A stretch of 64,000 nt of DNA from Escherichia coli. Lineage in GTDB: Bacteria > Pseudomonadota > Gammaproteobacteria > Enterobacterales > Enterobacteriaceae. This document shows, piece after piece, positions 5 through 48,514 of this stretch. Below the pieces are notes generated by a model. The model did not search any database. It saw nothing but the letters and a program-made list of their open reading frames with translations, and was not told the origin of the DNA. The position numbers were made by a program, and so were the translations under genes. The DNA is taken from the NCBI RefSeq assembly GCF_003334305.1, contig NZ_QOWS01000014.1; one strand, written 5' to 3'. Position 1 is the stretch's first letter. The number at the start of each line of letters is the position of its first letter.

Positions 5-565
5 TCAAAACTGAAAGCGCATCCAGGCAAAGTACACATTGCCATTGTTGTAGGTACCCGGAATGTAGGTCATCTGAAAAGTCACTGGGCCATAACCCAC
101 GGAGGCCAATGGCAGTAGAACCGGGAGAGGGATGTAATTCCAGTTATCGCGTGCCGTTACGCCAGCGGTGAATCCCAGACCTAAATGAAAATTTTCATCC
201 GCCAGCGGTCGCCAGGTACTTTCCCATCCGTATCCGGCAATCGGTTCCCATTTGTTCCACGAGTCCTTAAATGCCATGGCATACAGGCCATGCCAGTTTC
301 CTTTTTCATCCCAACGCGACAGGCCAAAACCGCCACCCCACGGTCGCTCGTTATAGCGATCGGTTTTTTCTTTGTCGTAAGCGAAACGTGCATGCCAGGT
401 GATGGCAGGAATATATAAATCATAATGTTCAGGCTGTTGCCAGGTTTGTGCAATATTTTCTCTAAACGTTGTCATCCACTCATCTGCGTTAGCAAAAACT
501 TTACCAACGCTGATTAACTGAATAAAAACAAAGGAAAAGATAGCGACATATTTACTCACGTTCAT
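5..565 (-). CDS. pagP: lipid A palmitoyltransferase PagP
   Basis: ORF 5..589 (-); protein [12 protein letters not shown]...FAWMRFQF recognised as PagP; start trimmed to the ATG giving MNVSKY (the ORF-track start is an upstream TTG). Confidence 0.9.
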
Positions 566-1153: not shown

Positions 1154-2539
1154 ATGCTGACATTCATTGAACTCCTTATTGGGGTTGTGGTTATTGTGGG
1201 TGTAGCTCGCTACATCATTAAAGGGTATTCCGCCACTGGTGTGTTATTTGTCGGTGGCCTGTTATTGCTGATTATCAGTGCCATTATGGGGCACAAAGTG
1301 TTACCGTCCAGCCAGGCTTCAACAGGCTACAGCGCCACGGATATCGTTGAATACGTTAAAATATTACTAATGAGCCGCGGCGGCGACCTCGGCATGATGA
1401 TTATGATGCTGTGTGGATTTGCCGCTTACATGACCCATATCGGCGCGAATGATATGGTGGTCAAGCTGGCGTCAAAACCATTGCAGTATATTAACTCCCC
1501 TTACCTGCTGATGATTGCCGCCTATTTTGTCGCCTGTCTGATGTCTCTGGCCGTCTCTTCCGCAACCGGTCTGGGTGTTTTGCTGATGGCAACCCTATTT
1601 CCGGTGATGGTAAACGTTGGTATCAGTCGTGGCGCAGCTGCTGCCATTTGTGCCTCCCCGGCGGCGATTATTCTCGCACCGACTTCAGGGGATGTGGTGC
1701 TGGCGGCGCAAGCTTCCGAAATGTCGCTGATTGACTTCGCCTTCAAAACGACGCTGCCTATCTCAATTGCTGCAATTATCGGCATGGCGATCGCCCACTT
1801 CTTCTGGCAACGTTATCTGGATAAAAAAGAGCACATCTCTCATGAAATGTTAGATGTCAGTGAAATCACCACCACTGCTCCTGCGTTTTATGCCATTTTG
1901 CCGTTCACGCCGATCATCGGTGTACTGATTTTTGACGGTAAATGGGGTCCGCAATTACACATCATCACTATTCTGGTGATTTGTATGCTGATTGCCTCCA
2001 TTCTGGAGTTCCTCCGCAGCTTTAATACCCAGAAAGTTTTCTCTGGTCTGGAAGTGGCTTATCGCGGAATGGCAGATGCGTTTGCTAACGTGGTGATGCT
2101 GCTGGTTGCCGCTGGGGTATTCGCTCAGGGGCTTAGCACCATCGGCTTTATTCAAAGTCTGATTTCTATCGCTACCTCGTTTGGTTCGGCGAGTATCATC
2201 CTGATGCTGGTATTGGTGATTCTGACCATGCTGGCGGCAGTCACGACCGGTTCAGGCAATGCGCCGTTTTATGCGTTTGTTGAGATGATCCCGAAACTGG
2301 CGCACTCTTCCGGCATTAACCCGGCGTATTTGACTATCCCGATGCTGCAGGCGTCAAACCTGGGCCGTACCCTTTCGCCCGTTTCTGGCGTAGTCGTTGC
2401 GGTTGCCGGGATGGCGAAGATCTCGCCGTTTGAAGTCGTAAAACGCACCTCGGTACCGGTGCTTGTTGGTTTGGTGATTGTTATCGTTGCTACAGAGCTG
2501 ATGGTGCCAGGAACGGCAGCAGCGGTCACAGGCAAGTAA
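1154..2539 (+). CDS. dcuC: anaerobic C4-dicarboxylate transporter DcuC
   Basis: 461-aa polytopic membrane ORF, N-terminus MLTFIELLIGVVVIVG; length matches DcuC. Confidence 0.9.
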   Translation: MLTFIELLIGVVVIVGVARYIIKGYSATGVLFVGGLLLLIISAIMGHKVLPSSQASTGYSATDIVEYVKILLMSRGGDLGMMIMMLCGFAAYMTHIGANDMVVKLASKPLQYINSPYLLMIAAYFVACLMSLAVSSATGLGVLLMATLFPVMVNVGISRGAAAAICASPAAIILAPTSGDVVLAAQASEMSLIDFAFKTTLPISIAAIIGMAIAHFFWQRYLDKKEHISHEMLDVSEITTTAPAFYAILPFTPIIGVLIFDGKWGPQLHIITILVICMLIASILEFLRSFNTQKVFSGLEVAYRGMADAFANVVMLLVAAGVFAQGLSTIGFIQSLISIATSFGSASIILMLVLVILTMLAAVTTGSGNAPFYAFVEMIPKLAHSSGINPAYLTIPMLQASNLGRTLSPVSGVVVAVAGMAKISPFEVVKRTSVPVLVGLVIVIVATELMVPGTAAAVTGK

Positions 2540-12926: not shown

Positions 12927-13072
12927 TCATCTGATTTACAAAACACGCTAATTCGTCTTCCATAAACCGTGACGATTAAGAATTATACATAATGCGCTGC
13001 ATTGAGGAATTCCCTGAATGTGACGCAAATCACTTCAAAGAGTGAGCAACAGTCAGTATCATCATGTGAGTT

Positions 13073-13107
13073 AAACCCTCGCCGCCTGACGGTGAGGGTT
13101 TTCTTTT
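13073..13107 (+). terminator. hairpin plus T-tract in the rna-rnk intergenic region
   Basis: aaccctcgccg...cggtgagggtt inverted repeat followed by ttcttttggg; coordinates approximate. Confidence 0.5.
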
Positions 13108-13155
13108 GGGTATGTTTATCTGCGACACTCGCAGTACCGACGACATGGAGTAAAA

Positions 13156-18104: not shown

Positions 18105-18475
18105 CTATACTTCCTCCGTGTTTTCGATGAGATGTAAGGTAACCAATTTTTGCCGATTCGGCTAATGCGTTTCCATTATCAAATCGATAAGTTTTACCTT
18201 ACAACCTTCGTAAGACAACTTTGTGAACTTTGCACCGCCAGCGGCGATAAAAAGTAAAATGGCCCCCTTTCCAGGTGACCGTGTAATCTGAACTACCCTT
18301 TGGTATCTTCAGCGCCTGCCTGCAGGCTGAGGTGTTGCCCTTACAAATGCAACAACGACATGGATTACAACACCCTCATAAACAAAGGGCAATCACCTGA
18401 TCTAAGCTCTTACCTATGACAGTGATAGGTTATGCCTTTTACTCGACTTTTGCACTGACTGAAAAGGACAAATTA
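18105..18475. promoter_or_regulatory. ahpC / dsbG divergent control region (expected OxyR-regulated ahpC promoter)
   Basis: 370-bp intergenic region between divergently transcribed ahpC and dsbG; the OxyR site is placed from knowledge of the K-12 locus, not from a motif found here. Confidence 0.4.
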
Positions 18476-23571: not shown

Positions 23572-24660
23572 ATGCCTCACAATCCTATCCGCGTGGTCGT
23601 CGGCCCGGCTAACTACTTTTCACATCCAGGAAGTTTCAATCACCTGCACGATTTTTTCACTGATGAACAACTTTCTCGCGCGGTGTGGATCTACGGCAAA
23701 CGCGCCATTGCTGCGGCGCAAACCAAACTTCCGCCAGCGTTTGGACTTCCAGGGGCAAAGCATATTTTGTTTCGTGGTCATTGCAGCGAAAGCGATGTAC
23801 AGCAACTGGCGGCTGAGTCCGGTGACGATCGCAGCGTGGTGATTGGCGTCGGCGGCGGCGCACTGCTCGACACCGCGAAAGCCCTCGCCCGCCGTCTCGG
23901 TCTGCCATTTGTTGCCGCTCCGACGATCGCCGCCACCTGCGCAGCCTGGACACCGCTCTCCGTCTGGTATAACGATGCCGGACAGGCGCTGCATTATGAG
24001 ATTTTCGACGACGCCAATTTTATGGTGCTGGTGGAACCGGAGATTATCCTCAATGCACCGCAACAATATCTGCTGGCGGGGATCGGTGACACGCTGGCGA
24101 AATGGTATGAAGCGGTGGTGCTGGCTCCGCAACCAGAAACGTTGCCGCTAACCGTGCGACTGGGGATCAATAATGCGCAGGCCATTCGCGACGTATTGTT
24201 AAACAGTAGCGAACAGGCGCTGAGCGATCAGCAAAATCAACAGTTAACGCAATCATTTTGCGATGTGGTGGATGCTATTATTGCTGGTGGTGGGATGGTC
24301 GGTGGTCTGGGCGATCGTTTTACGCGTGTGGCGGCGGCTCATGCCGTGCATAACGGTCTGACTGTCCTGCCGCAAACCGAGAAATTTCTCCACGGCACCA
24401 AAGTCGCTTATGGCATTCTGGTACAAAGCGCCTTGCTGGGTCAGGATGATGTGCTGGCGCAATTAACCGGGGCGTATCAGCGTTTTCATCTGCCGACCAC
24501 GCTGGCGGAGCTGGAAGTGGATATCAATAATCATGCGGAGATCGACAAAGTGATTACCCACACCCTGCGTCCGGTGGAATCCATTCATTACCTGCCAGTC
24601 ACGCTGACACCAGATACGTTGCGTGCAGCGTTCGAAAAAGTGGAATCGTTTAAAGCCTGA
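23572..24660 (+). CDS. ybdH: iron-containing alcohol/glycerol-dehydrogenase-family oxidoreductase YbdH (HcxA)
   Basis: 362-aa ORF MPHNPIRVVVGPANYFSHPGS. Confidence 0.85.
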   Translation: MPHNPIRVVVGPANYFSHPGSFNHLHDFFTDEQLSRAVWIYGKRAIAAAQTKLPPAFGLPGAKHILFRGHCSESDVQQLAAESGDDRSVVIGVGGGALLDTAKALARRLGLPFVAAPTIAATCAAWTPLSVWYNDAGQALHYEIFDDANFMVLVEPEIILNAPQQYLLAGIGDTLAKWYEAVVLAPQPETLPLTVRLGINNAQAIRDVLLNSSEQALSDQQNQQLTQSFCDVVDAIIAGGGMVGGLGDRFTRVAAAHAVHNGLTVLPQTEKFLHGTKVAYGILVQSALLGQDDVLAQLTGAYQRFHLPTTLAELEVDINNHAEIDKVITHTLRPVESIHYLPVTLTPDTLRAAFEKVESFKA

Positions 24661-24669
24661 CGTGCAAAT

Positions 24670-24867
24670 TTAGCAGCAGCGCGCGCCGCCTTTTCCACCG
24701 TAGCGCGCGTCCTGCCGCTCACGGAAAAACTCTTCGTAGGTCATCGGCGTTTGATCGGGATGGTTAACCCGCATATGTTCGACATAGTTGTCGTAATCAG
24801 GCATACCAATCATCAGCTTCGCCGCCTGACCTAAATATTTTCCGGCTTTTGCCAGTGAATCAAACAT
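24670..24867 (-). CDS. ybdD: DUF466 small protein YbdD (cstA-associated)
   Basis: 65-aa [35 protein letters not shown] downstream of cstA on the same strand. Confidence 0.85.
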
Positions 24868-24900
24868 CTTGGCCTCCGCTAACCATGTTGCTGAAAGAGT

Positions 24901-24934
24901 GCCGGATGCGGCGTGAACGCCTTATCCGGCCTAC
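24901..24934. repeat. REP (repetitive extragenic palindromic) element
   Basis: gccggatgcggcgtgaacgccttatccggcctac; near-identical copy at 46834..46867. Confidence 0.8.
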
Positions 24935-24954
24935 AAATGCTATCAACGCGCTCG

Positions 24955-25046
24955 GTCAGTCCCCTCGCCCCATCGGGGAGAGGGTTAGGGTGAGGAGGAA
25001 CCCTCGGCACTATGCCAACATTCGCCAACATCCCCCCTCACTCTGA
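24955..25046. repeat. GC-rich imperfect-palindrome intergenic repeat (second copy at 32370..32472)
   Basis: gtcccctcgccccatcggggagagggttagggtgagg matches the reverse complement of cccctcaccctaaccctctccccaaaggggcgaggggac at 32433..32472. Confidence 0.6.
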
Positions 25047-25048
25047 CT

Positions 25049-27154
25049 TTAGTGTGCGCCTTTTGCCTGCGCCACGATCTCCTCGACATTTTCCGGCATT
25101 GGCTCATACGGCGTTTCTTTCGCCGTTGGCTTCGGATCTTTCAATGCCGCCAGTGCCGTCTTAATCGAGAACAGCGCCAGAACCACCACGACCACCATAA
25201 AGAAGATGGTTAACCCGGCATCCAGACGGTTGTTGAACACCAGTTGCGCCAGCTGTGACTCAGTATACTGCGACGGAATATTGCCGCTGTCGATCATTGC
25301 CTGGAACTTATTAGCAATGGCCAGGAAGCCGACTTTCGCATCCGGGCTAAACGCTTTCTGCCAGCCTGCGGTCAGGGTACAAATCAGCAGCCAGGCCGTT
25401 GGTACCAGCGCCACCCAGGCGTAACGTTGACGTTTCATCTTGAACAACACCACGGCACAGAGCATCAGCGCCATCCCTGCCAGCATCTGGTTGGCAATAC
25501 CAAACAGCGGCCACAGAGTGTTAATGCCGCCCAGCGGATCGACCACGCCCTGATGGAGGAAGTAGCCCCACGCCAGTACGCACAGCGCTGTTGCCAGCAG
25601 GTTAGCAGGCAGTGAATCGGTCCGCTTCAGGCCCGGAGAAACCACGCCCAGCAGATCCTGCAACATAAAGCGCGCAGCACGCGTACCCGCATCTACCGCC
25701 GTCAGAATAAACAGAGCTTCAAACAGAATGGCGAAGTGATACCAGAACGCCACATCCATCATACCACCCAGCGCACCGTGCAGGATGTAAGCCATCCCCA
25801 CCGCCAGCGTCGGCGCACCGCCCGCACGGGAAATGATCGACTGTTCACCCACTTCGCTGGCAATCTGGTTGAGCGTATCTGGTGTAATGCTAAAGCCCCA
25901 GCTACTCACCACCTGCGCGGCAGAAGCGACTACATCCGCCGTCCCTGCCGGAGCCAGCACCGCCATTGGGCTGTTCATGGCAAAATACACGCCCGGATCG
26001 ATGATACAGGCAGAAACCAGCGCCATAATCGCCACGAAGGATTCCATCAACATCCCACCGTAGCCGATAAAGCACGCCTGCCCTTCGTTCGCCAGCATCT
26101 TCGGCGTGGTGCCGGAAGAGATCAGCGCATGGAAGCCAGACACCGCACCACAGGCGATGGTGATAAACAGGAACGGGAACAGGTTACCGGTCCATACCGG
26201 GCCAGTGCCATCGACAAATTTGGTCAGCGCAGGCATGGTCAGCGTCGGGCGCATAATCAAAATGCCTACCGCCAGACCGACGATAGTCCCGATTTTCAGG
26301 AAGGTCGAGAGATAGTCACGCGGGGCCAGCAGTAACCACACCGGCAGCACCGCCGCCACAAAACCGTAACCCACCAGCATCCAGGTCAACTGCACGCCGG
26401 TAAAGTCAAAGTACGGTGCCCAGGTCGGACTTTCTGCCACCCAGCCGCCAGAGATAATGGCGAAAATCAGGAATACCAGACCGATGACCGACACTTCGCC
26501 AATACGCCCCGGACGCAGATAGCGCAGGTAGATCCCCATAAACAGCGCCAGCGGAATGGTGAACGCAACGGTATATGTTCCCCACGGGCTATGAGTCAGG
26601 GCTTTCACCACGATCATCGCCAGCACTGCAAGGATAATGACCATGATCATAAAGCAGGCCACCAGCGCTATCACCCCGGCGGTTGGCCCCATCTCTTCTT
26701 TGACCAGCTCACCCAGCGATCGACCGTCACGGCGCGTAGAAACAAACAGCACCATGAAATCCTGCACCGCACCGGCGAGAACCACCCCGGCGAGCAGCCA
26801 GATCATCCCTGGCAGGTAACCCATTTGCGCCGCCAGTACCGGCCCAACCAACGGACCTGCTCCGGCAATGGCCGCAAAATGGTGACCGAACAGCACTTTC
26901 TTGTCCGTCGGCACATAGTCCAGCCCGTCGTTATGGCGCACCGCTGGCGTCATACGCGTCGGGTCAACCGCCAGCACATTTTTGGCGATATACAGCCCAT
27001 AAAAACGGTAAGCGATCAGATAGATACAGACCGACGCCACCACAATCCACAGCGCGTTGATCTGTTCCCCACGATTTAAAGCAATGTATCCCAGAGCAAA
27101 TGCTCCCATTACAGAGAGCACTGTCCAGACGAGGTATTTCCCTGATTTGTTCAT
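25049..27154 (-). CDS. cstA: carbon starvation protein A (peptide/pyruvate transporter family)
   Basis: 701-aa polytopic membrane ORF MNKSGKYLVWTVLSVMGAFALGYIAL. Confidence 0.93.
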   Translation of the reverse strand: MNKSGKYLVWTVLSVMGAFALGYIALNRGEQINALWIVVASVCIYLIAYRFYGLYIAKNVLAVDPTRMTPAVRHNDGLDYVPTDKKVLFGHHFAAIAGAGPLVGPVLAAQMGYLPGMIWLLAGVVLAGAVQDFMVLFVSTRRDGRSLGELVKEEMGPTAGVIALVACFMIMVIILAVLAMIVVKALTHSPWGTYTVAFTIPLALFMGIYLRYLRPGRIGEVSVIGLVFLIFAIISGGWVAESPTWAPYFDFTGVQLTWMLVGYGFVAAVLPVWLLLAPRDYLSTFLKIGTIVGLAVGILIMRPTLTMPALTKFVDGTGPVWTGNLFPFLFITIACGAVSGFHALISSGTTPKMLANEGQACFIGYGGMLMESFVAIMALVSACIIDPGVYFAMNSPMAVLAPAGTADVVASAAQVVSSWGFSITPDTLNQIASEVGEQSIISRAGGAPTLAVGMAYILHGALGGMMDVAFWYHFAILFEALFILTAVDAGTRAARFMLQDLLGVVSPGLKRTDSLPANLLATALCVLAWGYFLHQGVVDPLGGINTLWPLFGIANQMLAGMALMLCAVVLFKMKRQRYAWVALVPTAWLLICTLTAGWQKAFSPDAKVGFLAIANKFQAMIDSGNIPSQYTESQLAQLVFNNRLDAGLTIFFMVVVVVLALFSIKTALAALKDPKPTAKETPYEPMPENVEEIVAQAKGAH

Positions 27155-32214: not shown

Positions 32215-32369
32215 TTCGGTCGCTAACCTAAAAGCAAACGCGCACTATGTCAACTCTTGAGGTAACGCAATCTGCAACTCGGGGTTGCATCTGGTTGTGG
32301 TTACAATAAAAATGAGAAGCATTATTGATGGATTCGCATAAGCGCAATGTGATGTCCTGCGCCGTTCTG

Positions 32370-32472
32370 CCCCCTCTCCCTTCCAGGGTGAGGGCTGGGG
32401 TGAGGGTTAATGTTCGCACCAGTGCTGGCTGTTCCCCTCACCCTAACCCTCTCCCCAAAGGGGCGAGGGGAC
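32370..32472. repeat. GC-rich palindromic intergenic repeat in the fepB leader (same family as 24955..25046)
   Basis: ccccctctcccttccagggtgagggctggggtgagggtta ... cccctcaccctaaccctctccccaaaggggcgaggggac; internal inverted repeats. Confidence 0.6.
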
Positions 32473-32537
32473 GGATTGTGCGCTTTGTCGAATTTGTCAT
32501 TACGCCCTTAACCTTATTAATAACAGGAAGCTGATTT

Positions 32538-39009: not shown

Positions 39010-42000
39010 TTACCTGTTTAGCGTTGCGCGAATAATCGGCCCAATTTTTTCAAACGCCCCTGGAGAGATAATATCCACATGCGCACAATCCTGACGATAG
39101 ATATCCAGCTCCGCAATCCACGGCGACCAGGCGCGTTCGGGGCTCATACCTTCCTGAAGCGTGCGTTCAGCAACAAACAGCGTCGCTTTACCATCAAACG
39201 GTACGCTATGAGCAGTCGTCAGCAGGCGCACAGCATCAGCGTAGTTGCCTTCAATGGTGGTAAACAACTCCGTTGAAGTACTTCCCTGCTGTGCAGCCAG
39301 GAAGGCCTCGCGCTCGCGGTTAATCTCCGCCAGCACTTCCGGGTCCAGACCATTAGCTTCTTTTTCCTGCCAGTTTTGCGTTTCTGGCGGCCAGGTATCC
39401 AGCAAGCCAAGAAATGCCACCTGTTCGCCACGGGCACGCAGTCGCGCCGCAATACCCTGCACCAGCGTACCGCCAAGGGAATACCCCAGCAGGTAATAAG
39501 GGCCGTGCGGTTGTTGCTCAAGTAACGTTGCCAGATGCGCTTCGCAGACTTCATCCAGGTTTGTCGCTGTCTGCATGGGTCCATGAGGGCGCGGCGACTG
39601 AATGCCAATAATCGACCATTGTGGATCGAGATAACGCGAGAGCACGCTAAACTGCCAGGCAAAACCGGATGCCGGATGGAAACAAAACAGCGTCGGGCCA
39701 TTACCTTCACGCAACGGCAGAATGGTTTCGAATCCCATGCGCCGGGAGCTGTCCTCTTCACCATCAATAATCGTTGCCAGTTTGGCGACGGTTGACGCGA
39801 CCATCACCTGCCCCGGCGTCACCTGACGAGCAAACTGTCGACTTAACTGCGCTGCCAGTTTCATTGCCAGTAGCGAATGACCGCCCAGCGCAAAGAAATC
39901 AGCATCGGCATCCTGCACGTCACAACCCAGCAACGACGCGAATGCCGCGGCGATAATCTTTTCACTGCCCGCTTTCGGTGCACGTCCCGACGCTTGTGTC
40001 TTCAGTTCAGGCAACGGTAAGGCTTTGCGATCCAGCTTGCCGTTGGCGCTAAGAGGTAACTGTGGAAGTTGCAGCAGAACCACCGGCACCATATGCGGCG
40101 GCAATGTTTCGCGAAGCTGTGCCTGTAATGCGCTGGTATCCAACGGCAGACCTGATTGCGACACCAGATAGCCCACCAACTGACGCGCATCACCACCGGT
40201 GGCTGCCGCCAGGTTAATCACACAGGCGTGGGTAACGGCTTGTTTGACATCCGGCAGCGCCTGCATCACGCGATCGATTTCGCCCAGTTCGATACGCTGC
40301 CCGCGAATTTTTAGCTGATCGTCACTGCGCCCGAGGTACTCCACCGCGCCGTTATCCAGCCAGCGGGCGACGTCTCCGGTACGATACATCCGTTCACCTG
40401 GGGCAAAAGGATCGGCAATAAAACGGCTGGCGGTCAGATCGGGTCGTCCAAGATACCCCTGCGCCAGTTGGATGCCGGTGAGATAGAGATCACCCGCCAC
40501 ACCCGGCGGCACCGGATGCATCATCGCATCAAGAATACGCAGACCCGTATTCCATACCGGATAACCAATCGGCACACTGCTGCCGCGCACCTGTGCCAGT
40601 TCCTCGCCAAAAGCCGGATACCAGCTGACATCTACCGCCGCTTCCGTCGGGCCATACAGGTTATGCAACGGCGCGCCGGTTAACTGTTGCCATTCGCGGC
40701 ATAAATCAGCCGGTAAGGCCTCACCACTACAGAAAACCTGTTTCAACGTCGCGCAATTCTGGCGAGCGGTTTGCGGCGTCAGCGATGCAACAAATGCCGC
40801 CAGCATCGACGGCACAAAGTGCGTGGTCGTTACGCCATATTCGGCAAAGAATTGCTGCATAGCGAGCGGGTCACGGTGCGCTTCCGGTTCAGCCATCACC
40901 AGTTTTGCCCCTGCGATAAACGGCCAGAAAAACTCCCACACCGAGACATCAAAACTGCACGGCGTTTTTTGGGCAACGACATCTTCGCCTGTAAGCGGGT
41001 AGTGATTTTGCATCCATAACAGGCGGTTAACGATAGCCGTCTGCCCGACCATTACACCTTTCGGCCTGCCGGTGGAGCCAGAGGTAAAGATGATATAAGC
41101 CGTGTGGTGCGGTTGTGAAAGTTGCAGCGGCGCACTGCCCTGGGGGGTAAGCGGGGCGTTATAGCAAAGGCTTGTTAAATTGGGAACATCGCTAAAGCGC
41201 GGCAGTTGATCGTCGGTGGTAATTAACAGCGACGGACGCGCATCTTCCAGCATCATTTTCAGGCGATCGTCCGGATAGCCGGTATCCAGCGGTAGCCAGG
41301 CCGCGCCAGCTTCAACTATTGCATGGAGTGCCAGGGTCAAAAAGACCGAGCGCGGTAGTGCCACCGCCACGCTGTCCCCTGGTTTAACGCCGCGCTCACG
41401 CAGCAGATTCGCCAGCGCCACCACCTGCTCGCGCATTTCCCGATAGCTGAACAGGTAACGCGCATCTGCCAGCGCCGGAGCATCCGGTGTTTTTGCCGCT
41501 TGTTCTGCCACCAGCGCGCTCAGCGTGGTTTCTGGAATCTCAACCTGAGTGGCGTTGATCTGCGCCAGCTGCGCATACTCACCTGGCAGCATAATATCGA
41601 CATCGCCGCACAACAGCGCCGGATCCGCGGCGAACTGGGCAATCAGCATTTTCAGGCGTTCAGCATGCTGGATTAACGTTGGCTCATCGTAACGCTGTTT
41701 ATTGGCGAGGATCTCAATACTCAAATCACCGTGTTCATCCGGGAACAGGGCCAGTTCAAGGTCATTAACCGGACCGGTTGCCAGGGTATGGGTTTGCGTC
41801 TGAACACCAGGAATATCCAGTTGGTAATCAAATACCTTGATATTGAGTACCGGACCGAACAGCGGTTCCTCTCCTGCCGCTCGCCCGCTGTCACGGACAA
41901 TTTGTTCGGCATCGTAACGTTGATGACGACGCATTTTTTTCAGTTGTGCTGCCAGTCGGGTTGCCAGTTCCGGCAGCGTTTCTTGCGCCGCAATGTGAAT

Positions 42001-46833: not shown

Positions 46834-46931
46834 GCCGGATGCGGCGTGAACGCCTTATCCGGCCTACAAAAATCTTGCCAATTCAATATATTGCAGGACC
46901 ATGTAGGCCTGATAAGCGTAGCGCATCAGGC
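46834..46931. repeat. BIME-like pair of inverted REP elements downstream of fepA
   Basis: gccggatgcggcgtgaacgccttatccggcctac (46834..46867) and inverted gtaggcctgataagcgtagcgcatcaggc (46893..46931). Confidence 0.8.
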
Positions 46932-47710: not shown

Positions 47711-47863
47711 CTACTTCTTCGGTTCGTAAGCGAGAACAGCCTTAAACTCAATATTACGTTCCTTTACGGTGAACTCACACAGCGAGTCTCCGACCAGAAG
47801 CGTAAATCCCAGTACCGTCAAACACAGCACTATGACTGCCACAAGGGCATATTTCGTCAGCAT
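47711..47863 (-). CDS. hokE: Hok-family type I toxin (copy 1)
   Basis: 50-aa [50 protein letters not shown]; the frame is open a further 33 codons upstream to an ATG at 47962 (MKPQEIF...). Confidence 0.85.
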
Positions 47864-47939
47864 GTTTATATTGCCTCCATGCGAAGAAGGGACTACCATC
47901 CGAGTTGTTGAGGCTCGGAGTGGCAGCCCCAGGATTGAT

Positions 47940-48010
47940 AGAAATATCTCCTGGGGCTTCATCTTTCCAGACCTCAGAGTTAACCTGAAACCGGAAAGCT
48001 TCAGGCACCC
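47940..48010 (+). ncRNA. candidate Sok-like antisense RNA, copy 1 (position inferred)
   Basis: placed antisense to the mok-like start/RBS region by analogy with hok/sok architecture; stem-loop cctgaaaccggaaagcttcagg on this strand; no promoter verified. Confidence 0.25.
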
Positions 48011-48213
48011 GCCGTTATCTTACCCTTCCTCAACAAAATAGCTGTTTATTTATACAGTGAATCCTGTTTCGGACTTCTGTCGGCAAAACTCATCATTGCT
48101 CTTAAAACGAAATCGCCCGCAGCCATCACTGACCGCGGGCGAAAGTGTAAAGCAGGTGCCTTACCATCCTGACCTGACAACCGGATATGCGGGGATTGCT
48201 CCCCGCACAACGG

Positions 48214-48366
48214 CTACTTCTTCGGTTCGTAAGCGAGAACAACCTTAAACTCAATATTACGTTCCTTTACGGTGAACTCACACAGCGAATCCCCGACCAG
48301 AAGCGTAAATCCCAGCACCGTTAAACACAGCACTATGACTGCCGCAAGGGCATATTTCGTCAGCAT
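48214..48366 (-). CDS. Hok-family type I toxin (copy 2)
   Basis: 50-aa [50 protein letters not shown]; 2 aa substitutions relative to copy 1 (V8A, A42V). Confidence 0.85.
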
Positions 48367-48466
48367 GTTTATATTGCCTCCATGCGAAGAAGGGACTACC
48401 ATCCAAATTGTTCAGGTTTGGGTAGGTAGCCCCAGGGTTGATAGAAATATCGTCCTGGGGCTTCAT
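48278..48466 (-). CDS. mok-like overlapping leader ORF (copy 2), out of frame with hok
   Basis: 62-codon ORF starting MKPQDD at the position homologous to the copy-1 MKPQ start, ending inside hok in another frame, as in the canonical mok/hok arrangement. Confidence 0.3.
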
Positions 48467-48514
48467 CTTTCCAGACCTCAGAGTAAACCTGAAACCGGAA
48501 AGCTTCAGGCACCC
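48444..48514 (+). ncRNA. candidate Sok-like antisense RNA, copy 2 (position inferred)
   Basis: homologous position to the copy-1 candidate. Confidence 0.2.

Follow-up and report, generated by a model that had tools for sequence, protein, structure and literature searches.

A BoxC repeat fused to an older hairpin between cstA and ybdD of Escherichia coli

What is the GC-rich palindromic sequence that lies between cstA and ybdD in Escherichia coli, how did it come to be there and does it influence the expression of the two genes? The question is raised by a stretch of 64,000 nt from contig NZ_QOWS01000014.1 (assembly GCF_003334305.1), referred to here as the window, where an earlier note made from the sequence had drawn attention to such an element at 24955..25046. 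We consider it quite probable that the element is a slightly decayed copy of the BoxC repeat, that it became fused to an older hairpin after arriving or being regenerated within E. coli and that it is nearly neutral. As a discovery this carries little weight: the repeat has four published descriptions under different names, and its K-12 copy between the two genes has been catalogued. The locus is of use for a different reason, as it forms a natural allele series, with and without BoxC, with and without a REP and with and without a terminator-like hairpin, beside an identical ybdD. This series can serve as an experimental handle on whether BoxC affects a transcript.

The element and its repeat family

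Both genes are on the minus strand and the gap between the stop codon of cstA (25049..25051) and the start of ybdD was found to be exactly 181 nt (24868..25048). The co-orientation, the gap length, the adjoining REP and the sequence quoted by the earlier note were all confirmed. When the gap was used as a query, it matched many E. coli chromosomes with 100% identity, in each case between annotated cstA and ybdD. The GC-rich element spans about 24941..25047 of the gap (Table 1) and only 6 nt separate the BoxC element from the REP. Its limits had been drawn slightly too narrow, as the family-conserved sequence starts about 14 nt further to the left, where the flank GCGCTCGGTCAGT is included, and the distal arm ends at 25047 and not at 25046. 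The REP is a member of a separate family, and its consensus stem (of the GCCGGATG...CATCCGGC type) was found only at the REP itself and not within the BoxC element. Covariance models of Rfam 15 gave no match at gathering score to the gap element, and the match of the REP-derived naRNA4 family to the REP is sub-threshold (38.2 bits, with a gathering score of 59.5). Two small genes that can be read through the REP and BoxC, at 24849..25046 (plus strand, 65 aa, TTG start) and 24879..25031 (minus strand, 50 aa), were rejected as probably spurious since no RefSeq genome annotates them and indels vary between strains in this region.

Table 1. Positions in the window of the features in and around the cstA-ybdD gap and of the entC-fepB pair
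Feature	Position	Strand	Description and basis
ybdD (65 aa)	24670..24867	-	downstream gene; open reading frame
REP gtgccggatgcggcgtgaacgccttatccggcctac	24899..24934	+	separate family, outside BoxC; sequence and REP-like regex matches
BoxC unit, type A	24941..25001	+	conserved flank through third G-block to the following AAC; alignment to K-12 copies
5' flank GCGCTCGGTCAGT	24948..24960	+	family consensus GTGCTCGGTCAGT; conserved in five other BoxC copies
C-block CCCCTCGCCCC	24961..24971	+	opening strand of the hairpin/triplex motif; agrees with CCCTCNCCC in the TMECO consensus
Loop 1, ATC	24972..24974	+	between C-block and G-block 1
G-block 1 GGGGAGAGGG	24975..24984	+	pairs with the C-block with one conserved mismatch ('A mm' type); RNA and DNA folds
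Loop 2, TTA	24985..24987	+	defines type A by the definition of Holder 2015
G-block 2 (third block), mutated	24988..24998	+	GGGTGAGGAGG in place of GGGTGAGGGGG; regex scans
Spacer	24999..25031	+	shares homology with the spacer found in complete convergent BoxC pairs
10-nt tandem duplication GCCAACATTC GCCAACATCC	25014..25033	+	in the spacer; overlaps the start of the distal arm
Distal arm CCCCCCTCACTCTGAC	25032..25047	+	complementary to G-block 2; abuts the cstA stop codon
cstA (701 aa)	25049..27154	-	upstream gene; open reading frame
Type-B BoxC/TMECO arm, entC-fepB intergenic region	32372..32406	+	exact regex match; TMECO no. 8
Type-A BoxC/TMECO arm, same convergent pair	32435..32469	-	exact regex match; TMECO no. 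7

The element had been regarded as the reverse complement of part of a second one at 32370..32472 and, for that reason, as a member of a dispersed repeat family, and both statements hold. A formal alignment of the plus strand at 24940..25060 with the reverse complement of 32355..32485 gave a mean column identity of 78%, where the first ~40 nt (GTCCCCTCGCCCC..GGGGAGAGGGTTAGGGTGAGG) are near-identical in both window copies and the likeness also covers the spacer and the distal CCCTCAC block. Two occurrences of the 21-mer GGGGAGAGGGTTAGGGTGAGG were found in the window when up to 3 mismatches were allowed, whereas none of 100 dinucleotide-preserving shuffles contained it. Furthermore, of 5,426 complete E. 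coli genomes 4,981 had matches to the 94-nt element, at 41,482 places in all, and the family is therefore a dispersed one, with a median of 9 places per genome and a range of 1-17 among the genomes with any match. Only 12 of these places are on plasmids, and no annotated feature was observed beneath the element among the matches listed for complete E. coli genomes. Such a multi-copy, chromosomal and strictly intergenic distribution in E. coli is the one that characterizes BoxC/PIT/TMECO.

The second copy in the window consists of two convergent arms which sit between an entC-sized and a fepB-sized open reading frame, and the minus-strand arm is the partner of the cstA-ybdD element in the alignment. 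Table 1 of Holder et al. 2015 (PMC4666352) places TMECO nos 7 and 8 in the fepB-entC intergenic region at MG1655 624,579-624,676. Matches of Rfam miRNA families on 32373..32468 were also seen but were rejected, as they are sub-threshold and of the kind that generic hairpins give by chance.

Five K-12 copies from the same table were fetched (hrpB-mrcB, ygfF-gcvP, alx-sstT, lldD-trmL and fabI-ycjD) and four of them (lldD-trmL being left out) were aligned with the entC-fepB pair of the window and the cstA-ybdD element. The homology was observed to exceed the 36-nt motif, as the 5' flank (consensus GTGCTCGGTCAGT) and the spacer of convergent pairs also align, and we therefore take the unit to be roughly 56-60 nt. 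The established copies agree with the element in the flank, in each of the three blocks and in the TTA loop, in keeping with homology to BoxC. As judged by this homology, the element is a copy of the repeat known as BoxC, PIT, TMECO and HPG1.

The names reflect a repeated discovery. According to Holder et al. 2015 (PMC4666352), the motif was first described as BoxC by Bergler et al. 1992 and was rediscovered as the 'potential intrastrand triplex' (PIT) by Hoyne et al. 2000 and Hoyne and Maher 2002; Holder et al. themselves renamed BoxC/PIT as TMECO, with the consensus CCCTCNCCC-N3-6-GGGNGAGGG-N3-GGGNGAGGG, where TTA in the second loop defines type A and CCG type B. An inverted pairing of type A with type B occurs at 5 of 18 K-12 sites and is hence not obligatory. 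A search for G-quadruplex motifs in K-12 by Kaplan et al. 2016 (PMC5100583) recovered the same repeat, which was named HPG1/HPG2. In Table 1 of that study, HPGQ no. 19 (class HPG1, midpoint 632058, minus strand) follows cstA by 51 nt and precedes ybdD by 108 nt, and its strand is opposite to that of the genes. The K-12 copy at cstA-ybdD has thus already been published, and the family has been known since 1992.

The cstA-ybdD copy is a type-A BoxC unit (~56-60 nt) fused to an older hairpin. The unit is arranged as conserved flank, CCCCTCGCCCC, loop, GGGGAGAGGG, TTA and GGGTGAGGNGG, and its G-rich strand, the plus strand of the window, serves as the template for cstA and ybdD. Opposing the type-A unit is only the 16-nt CCCCCCTCACTCTGAC, which resembles one block of a type-B arm and is also present in Escherichia lineages without the BoxC core. 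Since this distal arm is common to all the Escherichia lineages examined, it is older than the core. The older hairpin directly follows the cstA stop codon, and the third G-block of BoxC now supplies one of its arms. Within the spacer, one copy of the 10-nt duplication is absent in STE15, KOr021 and EC556, apparently a polymorphism of the slippage type.

The window copy reads CCCTCGCCC-CATCG-GGGAGAGGG-TTA-GGGTGAGGA with one mismatch in the last block, and neither the strict TMECO regex nor the pattern of four G-tracts (at least 3 G, loops of 1-7 nt) matches it. It is a one-substitution derivative and thus a mildly decayed BoxC member, where the G-to-A change in the third block removes one G.G:C triplet. 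We noticed that the identity of the third block decides which definition a copy passes. With GGGTGAGGAGG, as in the window strain, neither the triplex nor the G-quadruplex definition is passed; with GGGTGAGAGGG, as in K-12, the G-quadruplex rule is passed (GGGGAGAGGGTTAGGGTGAGAGGG) but not the triplex consensus; and with GGGTGAGGGGG, as in NRZ14408, EC556 and STE15, both are passed and the TMECO match is exact. Holder's list of 23 K-12 TMECOs has nothing at 632 kb (PMC4666352), and its disagreement with Kaplan's list at this position is explained by our regex scans, since K-12 passes the G-quadruplex rule only. Four literatures have therefore dealt with one element, and the cstA-ybdD copy shows how motif-based catalogues of it come to disagree.

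In comparison with known systems, the element has the same architecture as BoxC/PIT/TMECO (CCCTCNCCC, loop, GGGNGAGGG, TTA, GGGNGAGG) and shares with it the 5' flank, the intergenic location and the multi-copy chromosomal distribution, but it deviates from the consensus by the third-block substitution and by having no full type-B partner. With respect to HPG1, the K-12 copy has four tracts of G3+ whereas the fourth tract of the window strain is interrupted (GGAGG). REP/BIME elements are like BoxC in being short GC-rich palindromic intergenic repeats, often located 3' of genes or between co-oriented genes, but the sequences are unrelated and each is present or absent independently at cstA-ybdD. 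REPs are associated with RAYT-type transposases; for BoxC we know of no such association and of no cognate enzyme. Intrinsic terminators and attenuators likewise place a GC-rich stem-loop in the spacer of a co-oriented pair, but the window element is without a T/U tract. RU-3 (Delihas 2007, PMC2759123), a 103-nt E. coli intergenic repeat, was rejected as a candidate because its published sequence is a REP pair (tatgccggatgcggcgtaaacgccttatccggcctac...) and not BoxC; it matches the 32370..32472 element in length only.

Alleles of the gap and arrival of the copy

At least seven length alleles of the cstA-ybdD gap were observed in E. coli, with slippage-type indels inside and beside the element. 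The REP and BoxC are found together in the window type (181 nt) and the K-12 type (182 nt), as well as in 0H15 (175 nt) and STE15 (172 nt) where small slippage indels occur. In NRZ14408 (152 nt) and EC556 (142 nt) BoxC is intact and the REP is precisely missing, while KOr021 (127 nt) has the REP and no BoxC core. E118 and AR_0017 (112 nt) are without both and carry a different, terminator-like hairpin, GCCCTCTTAATTCAGGAGGGC followed by ATTTGTATTA, which lies just upstream of the ybdD ribosome-binding site (321..341 of the E118-type locus L003). The REP is absent independently of BoxC in NRZ14408, EC556 and E118. The E118-type (B2-type) gap was found in 1189 of 5426 E. coli genomes, Nissle 1917 included, so that at least 22% of the genomes do not have the core. 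The 181-nt gap is covered to 80% or more in 3,696 genomes, and the 681-nt query with flanks to the same extent in 4,231. The YbdD protein (WP_000460431.1) is identical in all the alleles fetched, including those without the core, and the BoxC core is therefore dispensable for an intact cstA-ybdD pair.

The E118-type hairpin was also noticed to be homologous to the hairpin of Citrobacter and Salmonella, and all other Escherichia alleles, those of the sister species too, have a REP in its place. This pattern does not follow the species tree and suggests recurrent REP insertion or recombination between lineages.

Outside E. coli, the gaps of E. albertii, E. whittamii, Escherichia sp. MOD1-EC7003 and the divergent 'E. 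coli' SCPM-O-B-8794 contain a hairpin (GAGTGAGGGG..CCCCTCACTC) straight after the cstA stop and then a REP, with no BoxC core. In the 600 flank positions compared, these four show 21-39 differences to the E. coli alleles and all of them fall outside E. coli. The core is thus absent from the sister Escherichia lineages, which bears out the earlier impression of an insertion. What the 'empty' alleles miss or have replaced is the whole of the type-A unit, its third block included. Relative to KOr021 and the outgroups, the filled E. coli alleles have an additional ~44 nt in the sense orientation (AACCCTCTCCCCGATGGGGCGAGGGGACTGACCGAGCGCGTTGAT) and the hairpin arm differs, with CCCCCTCACCCT in place of CCCCTTACTCT. 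Neither a target-site duplication nor terminal inverted repeats were found at the filled/empty junctions (STE15 and the window against KOr021 and the outgroups).

A tree of the 600-nt flanks separates E. coli from the other Escherichia and leaves the events within E. coli unordered. KOr021, without BoxC, is only 4 substitutions in 600 nt away from STE15, which has it, and the B2-type allele keeps 14-17 nt of apparent BoxC flank (CCGAGCGTGTTGATAGC) without the core. This leftover flank suggests a deletion or a recombinant. On the basis of the remnant and of the closeness of KOr021 to STE15, we conclude that secondary loss and recombination have also occurred.

We infer from these comparisons that the copy was gained or regenerated within E. 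coli. The likely route would be not transposition but recombination between another BoxC copy and a hairpin of partial homology, or gene conversion of that hairpin by the copy, whereby the third block of BoxC would have replaced the partly homologous arm of the older hairpin. The comparison of filled and empty alleles with the sister species hints at the same mode of spread. Since the core is dispensable, the copy may persist as a nearly neutral structured repeat.

The gap in other species

A scan for YbdD in a collection of species-representative genomes gave 80 loci, where 77 contain the 3' end of cstA. Among the 74 species whose gap measures 40 nt or more, the sense strand of the gap was observed to be significantly structured in 67 (median z -3.6; 91% below -2, mononucleotide shuffles). 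The structures are of several kinds. Citrobacter and Salmonella have a GCCCTCTCC..GGAGAGGGC hairpin, several Enterobacter species have REP-like hairpins and Atlantibacter and Buttiauxella have a hairpin followed by a T-run. Full BoxC pairs, which unlike E. coli are divergent, were found in Enterobacter asburiae, E. hormaechei, Leclercia, Lelliottia, Pluralibacter, Phytobacter and Pseudocitrobacter, and the gap of Cedecea davisae contains a single full BoxC unit with decayed blocks. BoxC is present in the gap of about nine genera, in differing arrangements. In addition, the 49-nt gap of the paralogous K-12 pair btsT-yjiX has a GC hairpin and then a T-rich tail, so that terminator-like versions with a hairpin and a T-run are found at the equivalent position in other genera, in the B2-type allele and in btsT-yjiX.

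In the BoxC-bearing loci (L025, L028, L054, L067, L071, L074, L075, L080, L081 and L048) the gap is located at about 1380..1500 each. Congeners of BoxC-bearing species can have a REP-like hairpin only (L092 compared with L080, and L044 with L045), which amounts to recurrent occupancy of one gap. Two loci of the scan are likely to reflect contamination or mis-binning. One (L019) is a contig of 465 nt and 0.73x coverage which is labelled Streptomyces sp. DH24 and encodes a 98%-identical YbdD; the other (L045) is a contig of a 'Bacillota bacterium' MAG with an Enterobacter-like cstA-ybdD locus. Among phages, the Campylobacter records MG065686.1 and MG065691.1 each have two 44-nt stretches that are 95.5% identical to the E. 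coli type-A arm, which is unexpected for this host and may have arisen by contamination or as an artefact of assembly. Large replicons of Azospirillum, Methylobacterium and Variovorax contain sequences like the BoxC pair, which align with more than 90% of the 111-nt query at an identity of ~74-75%, and 46 further plasmid records of Azospirillum and Rhizobium match the pair, which fits the wide proteobacterial spread reported for TMECO.

Folding, possible roles and other RNA features

Folding of the element as RNA in the cstA sense, which the earlier note had proposed as a check, gave a stable structure of -48.9 kcal/mol (z -3.4). Two hairpins, GAGUGAGGGGGG..CCUCCUCAC and CCCUCUCCCC-GAU-GGGGCGAGGG, are closed by a 5-bp GUCAG/CUGAC stem, and the REP adds a third hairpin when the whole gap is folded. 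The G-rich strand folded as single-stranded DNA (-19.2 kcal/mol, z -1.9) is marginally better than its shuffles. Because the G-rich strand is the template, the cstA-sense RNA carries its C-rich complement; this RNA cannot form a purine-motif triplex or a G-quadruplex and is restricted to ordinary hairpins. Its Y-shaped fold would keep the ancestral stem and add one stem-loop of 9-10 bp. In consensus scans, neither strand of 24500..25400 showed a U-tract or a terminator-like site, and no sigma-70-like promoter was seen in the gap or within the final 350 nt of cstA.

A role of the element in mRNA processing, stability or differential expression had been proposed on the grounds of its position. 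The general part of this proposal is supported by the stable sense-strand hairpins and by the structured gap in 67 of 74 species, and a generic RNA-hairpin role, such as that of a leaky terminator or a 3'-end stabiliser, is plausible for the position. A role specific to BoxC has against it that the core is dispensable, that there is no terminator site and that the negative results of Hoyne and Maher apply to the family. We find it unlikely that BoxC itself is a selected cis-acting RNA element which protects against 3' exonucleases, acts as a leaky terminator or pause site or sets the CstA:YbdD ratio. It does lie on the sense transcript between two genes that act together, CstA and YbdD being both required for constitutive pyruvate uptake (PMC5847655), its RNA fold is stable and the lack of a promoter-like site in the gap or the last 350 nt of cstA is compatible with read-through; the structure of the gap across the enterobacterial species, the btsT-yjiX hairpin and the terminator-like hairpin of the B2-type allele also speak for selection on RNA. 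What is conserved, however, is 'some hairpin', since REP-like hairpins, simple hairpins and BoxC interchange across species, and the ancestral hairpin and REP already serve in the Escherichia lineages without BoxC. The missing U-tract argues in the same direction, as does the fact that 22% or more of the E. coli genomes do without the core, and so do the data of Hoyne and Maher 2002, who by the account of Holder et al. (PMC4666352) saw no promoter or terminator activity and no in-vivo effect for the family. The co-transcription of cstA and ybdD, which had been thought probable, is not supported by the RegulonDB data tabulated in Kaplan 2016 (PMC5100583), where each gene is listed as a separate one-gene operon.

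Two further explanations place the activity of the element in the DNA. A non-B structure of the template strand, either a purine-motif triplex or a G-quadruplex/hairpin switch, might stall the polymerase, regulate the genes or make the locus unstable, and this we hold to be very unlikely here. Consensus TMECO oligonucleotides form stable triplexes in vitro as seen by CD and NMR, and sequence variability is raised around TMECO loci (PMC4666352). Kaplan 2016 (PMC5100583) propose a G-quadruplex/hairpin/duplex switch with a terminator-like role for copies inside operons, and the cstA-ybdD locus is itself hypervariable, as its length alleles and slippage-type indels indicate. The third block of the window copy, GGGTGAGGA, nevertheless conforms neither to TMECO nor to the four-tract G3+ pattern, and the DNA hairpin exceeds its shuffles only marginally. 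Furthermore, a duplex forms with the complementary strand and in-vivo DMS footprints argue against stable triplexes (PMC4666352), where the absence of an in-vivo effect in the hands of Hoyne and Maher is also related. The idea that the element is a MITE-like non-autonomous transposon, moved in trans by a transposase or a RAYT-type enzyme, appears highly improbable to us even though it is short, palindromic, multi-copy and intergenic, is polymorphic for presence between strains and species and reaches 1-17 matching places per genome among genomes with any match. The junctions are without a target-site duplication or a defined terminal inverted repeat, and the 'insertion' replaces a partly homologous block, which is more like conversion. 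BoxC is also essentially absent from phages (three matching records, each covering 40% of the query at most) and from mobilizable plasmids, as 75 of the 82 plasmid records with a match are classed as non-mobilizable and several reach Mb size. No link to mobile elements was seen by Holder 2015 (PMC4666352). That no cognate enzyme is known is a further point against this explanation.

We therefore prefer to view the element as a nearly neutral, slightly decayed BoxC copy on an older hairpin. REP hairpins stabilise upstream mRNA and are the model for an RNA-level hypothesis. Any effect of the copy on expression would be that of a generic extra stable hairpin beside the REP, which might act as a barrier to 3'-to-5' decay or as a pause site, and would not be specific to BoxC. 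The structured gap in 67 of 74 species, the btsT-yjiX hairpin and the presence of BoxC in about nine genera leave room for selection on structure. A distinctly unlikely extension of this is that the cstA-ybdD spacer, and perhaps that of btsT-yjiX too, is a conserved 'hairpin slot' that, as a leaky terminator or 3'-end stabiliser, tunes the ratio of transporter to partner and is repeatedly refilled by simple hairpins, REP-like hairpins or BoxC, with BoxC spreading without a transposase by conversion of CCCTC/GAGGG hairpins. Pre-existing CCCTCTCC..GGAGAGGG hairpins would then be the targets of conversion. If true, such a slot would explain both the recurrence of BoxC in about nine genera and the replacement of the older arm in E. 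coli.

Elsewhere in the window, Rfam matches at gathering level were observed for the rnk leader at 13002..13110 (plus strand) and the sRNA STnc70 at 18249..18342 (minus strand), and for ES036 (CssrF) at 46869..46910 (plus strand), within a cluster of REPs that spans 46834..46931. The sok antitoxin RNA is matched twice in tandem, at 47855..48010 and 48358..48514 (minus strand), with 86 bits each and a gathering score of 59, which indicates a putative duplicated toxin-antitoxin locus of the hok/sok type at 47855..48514.
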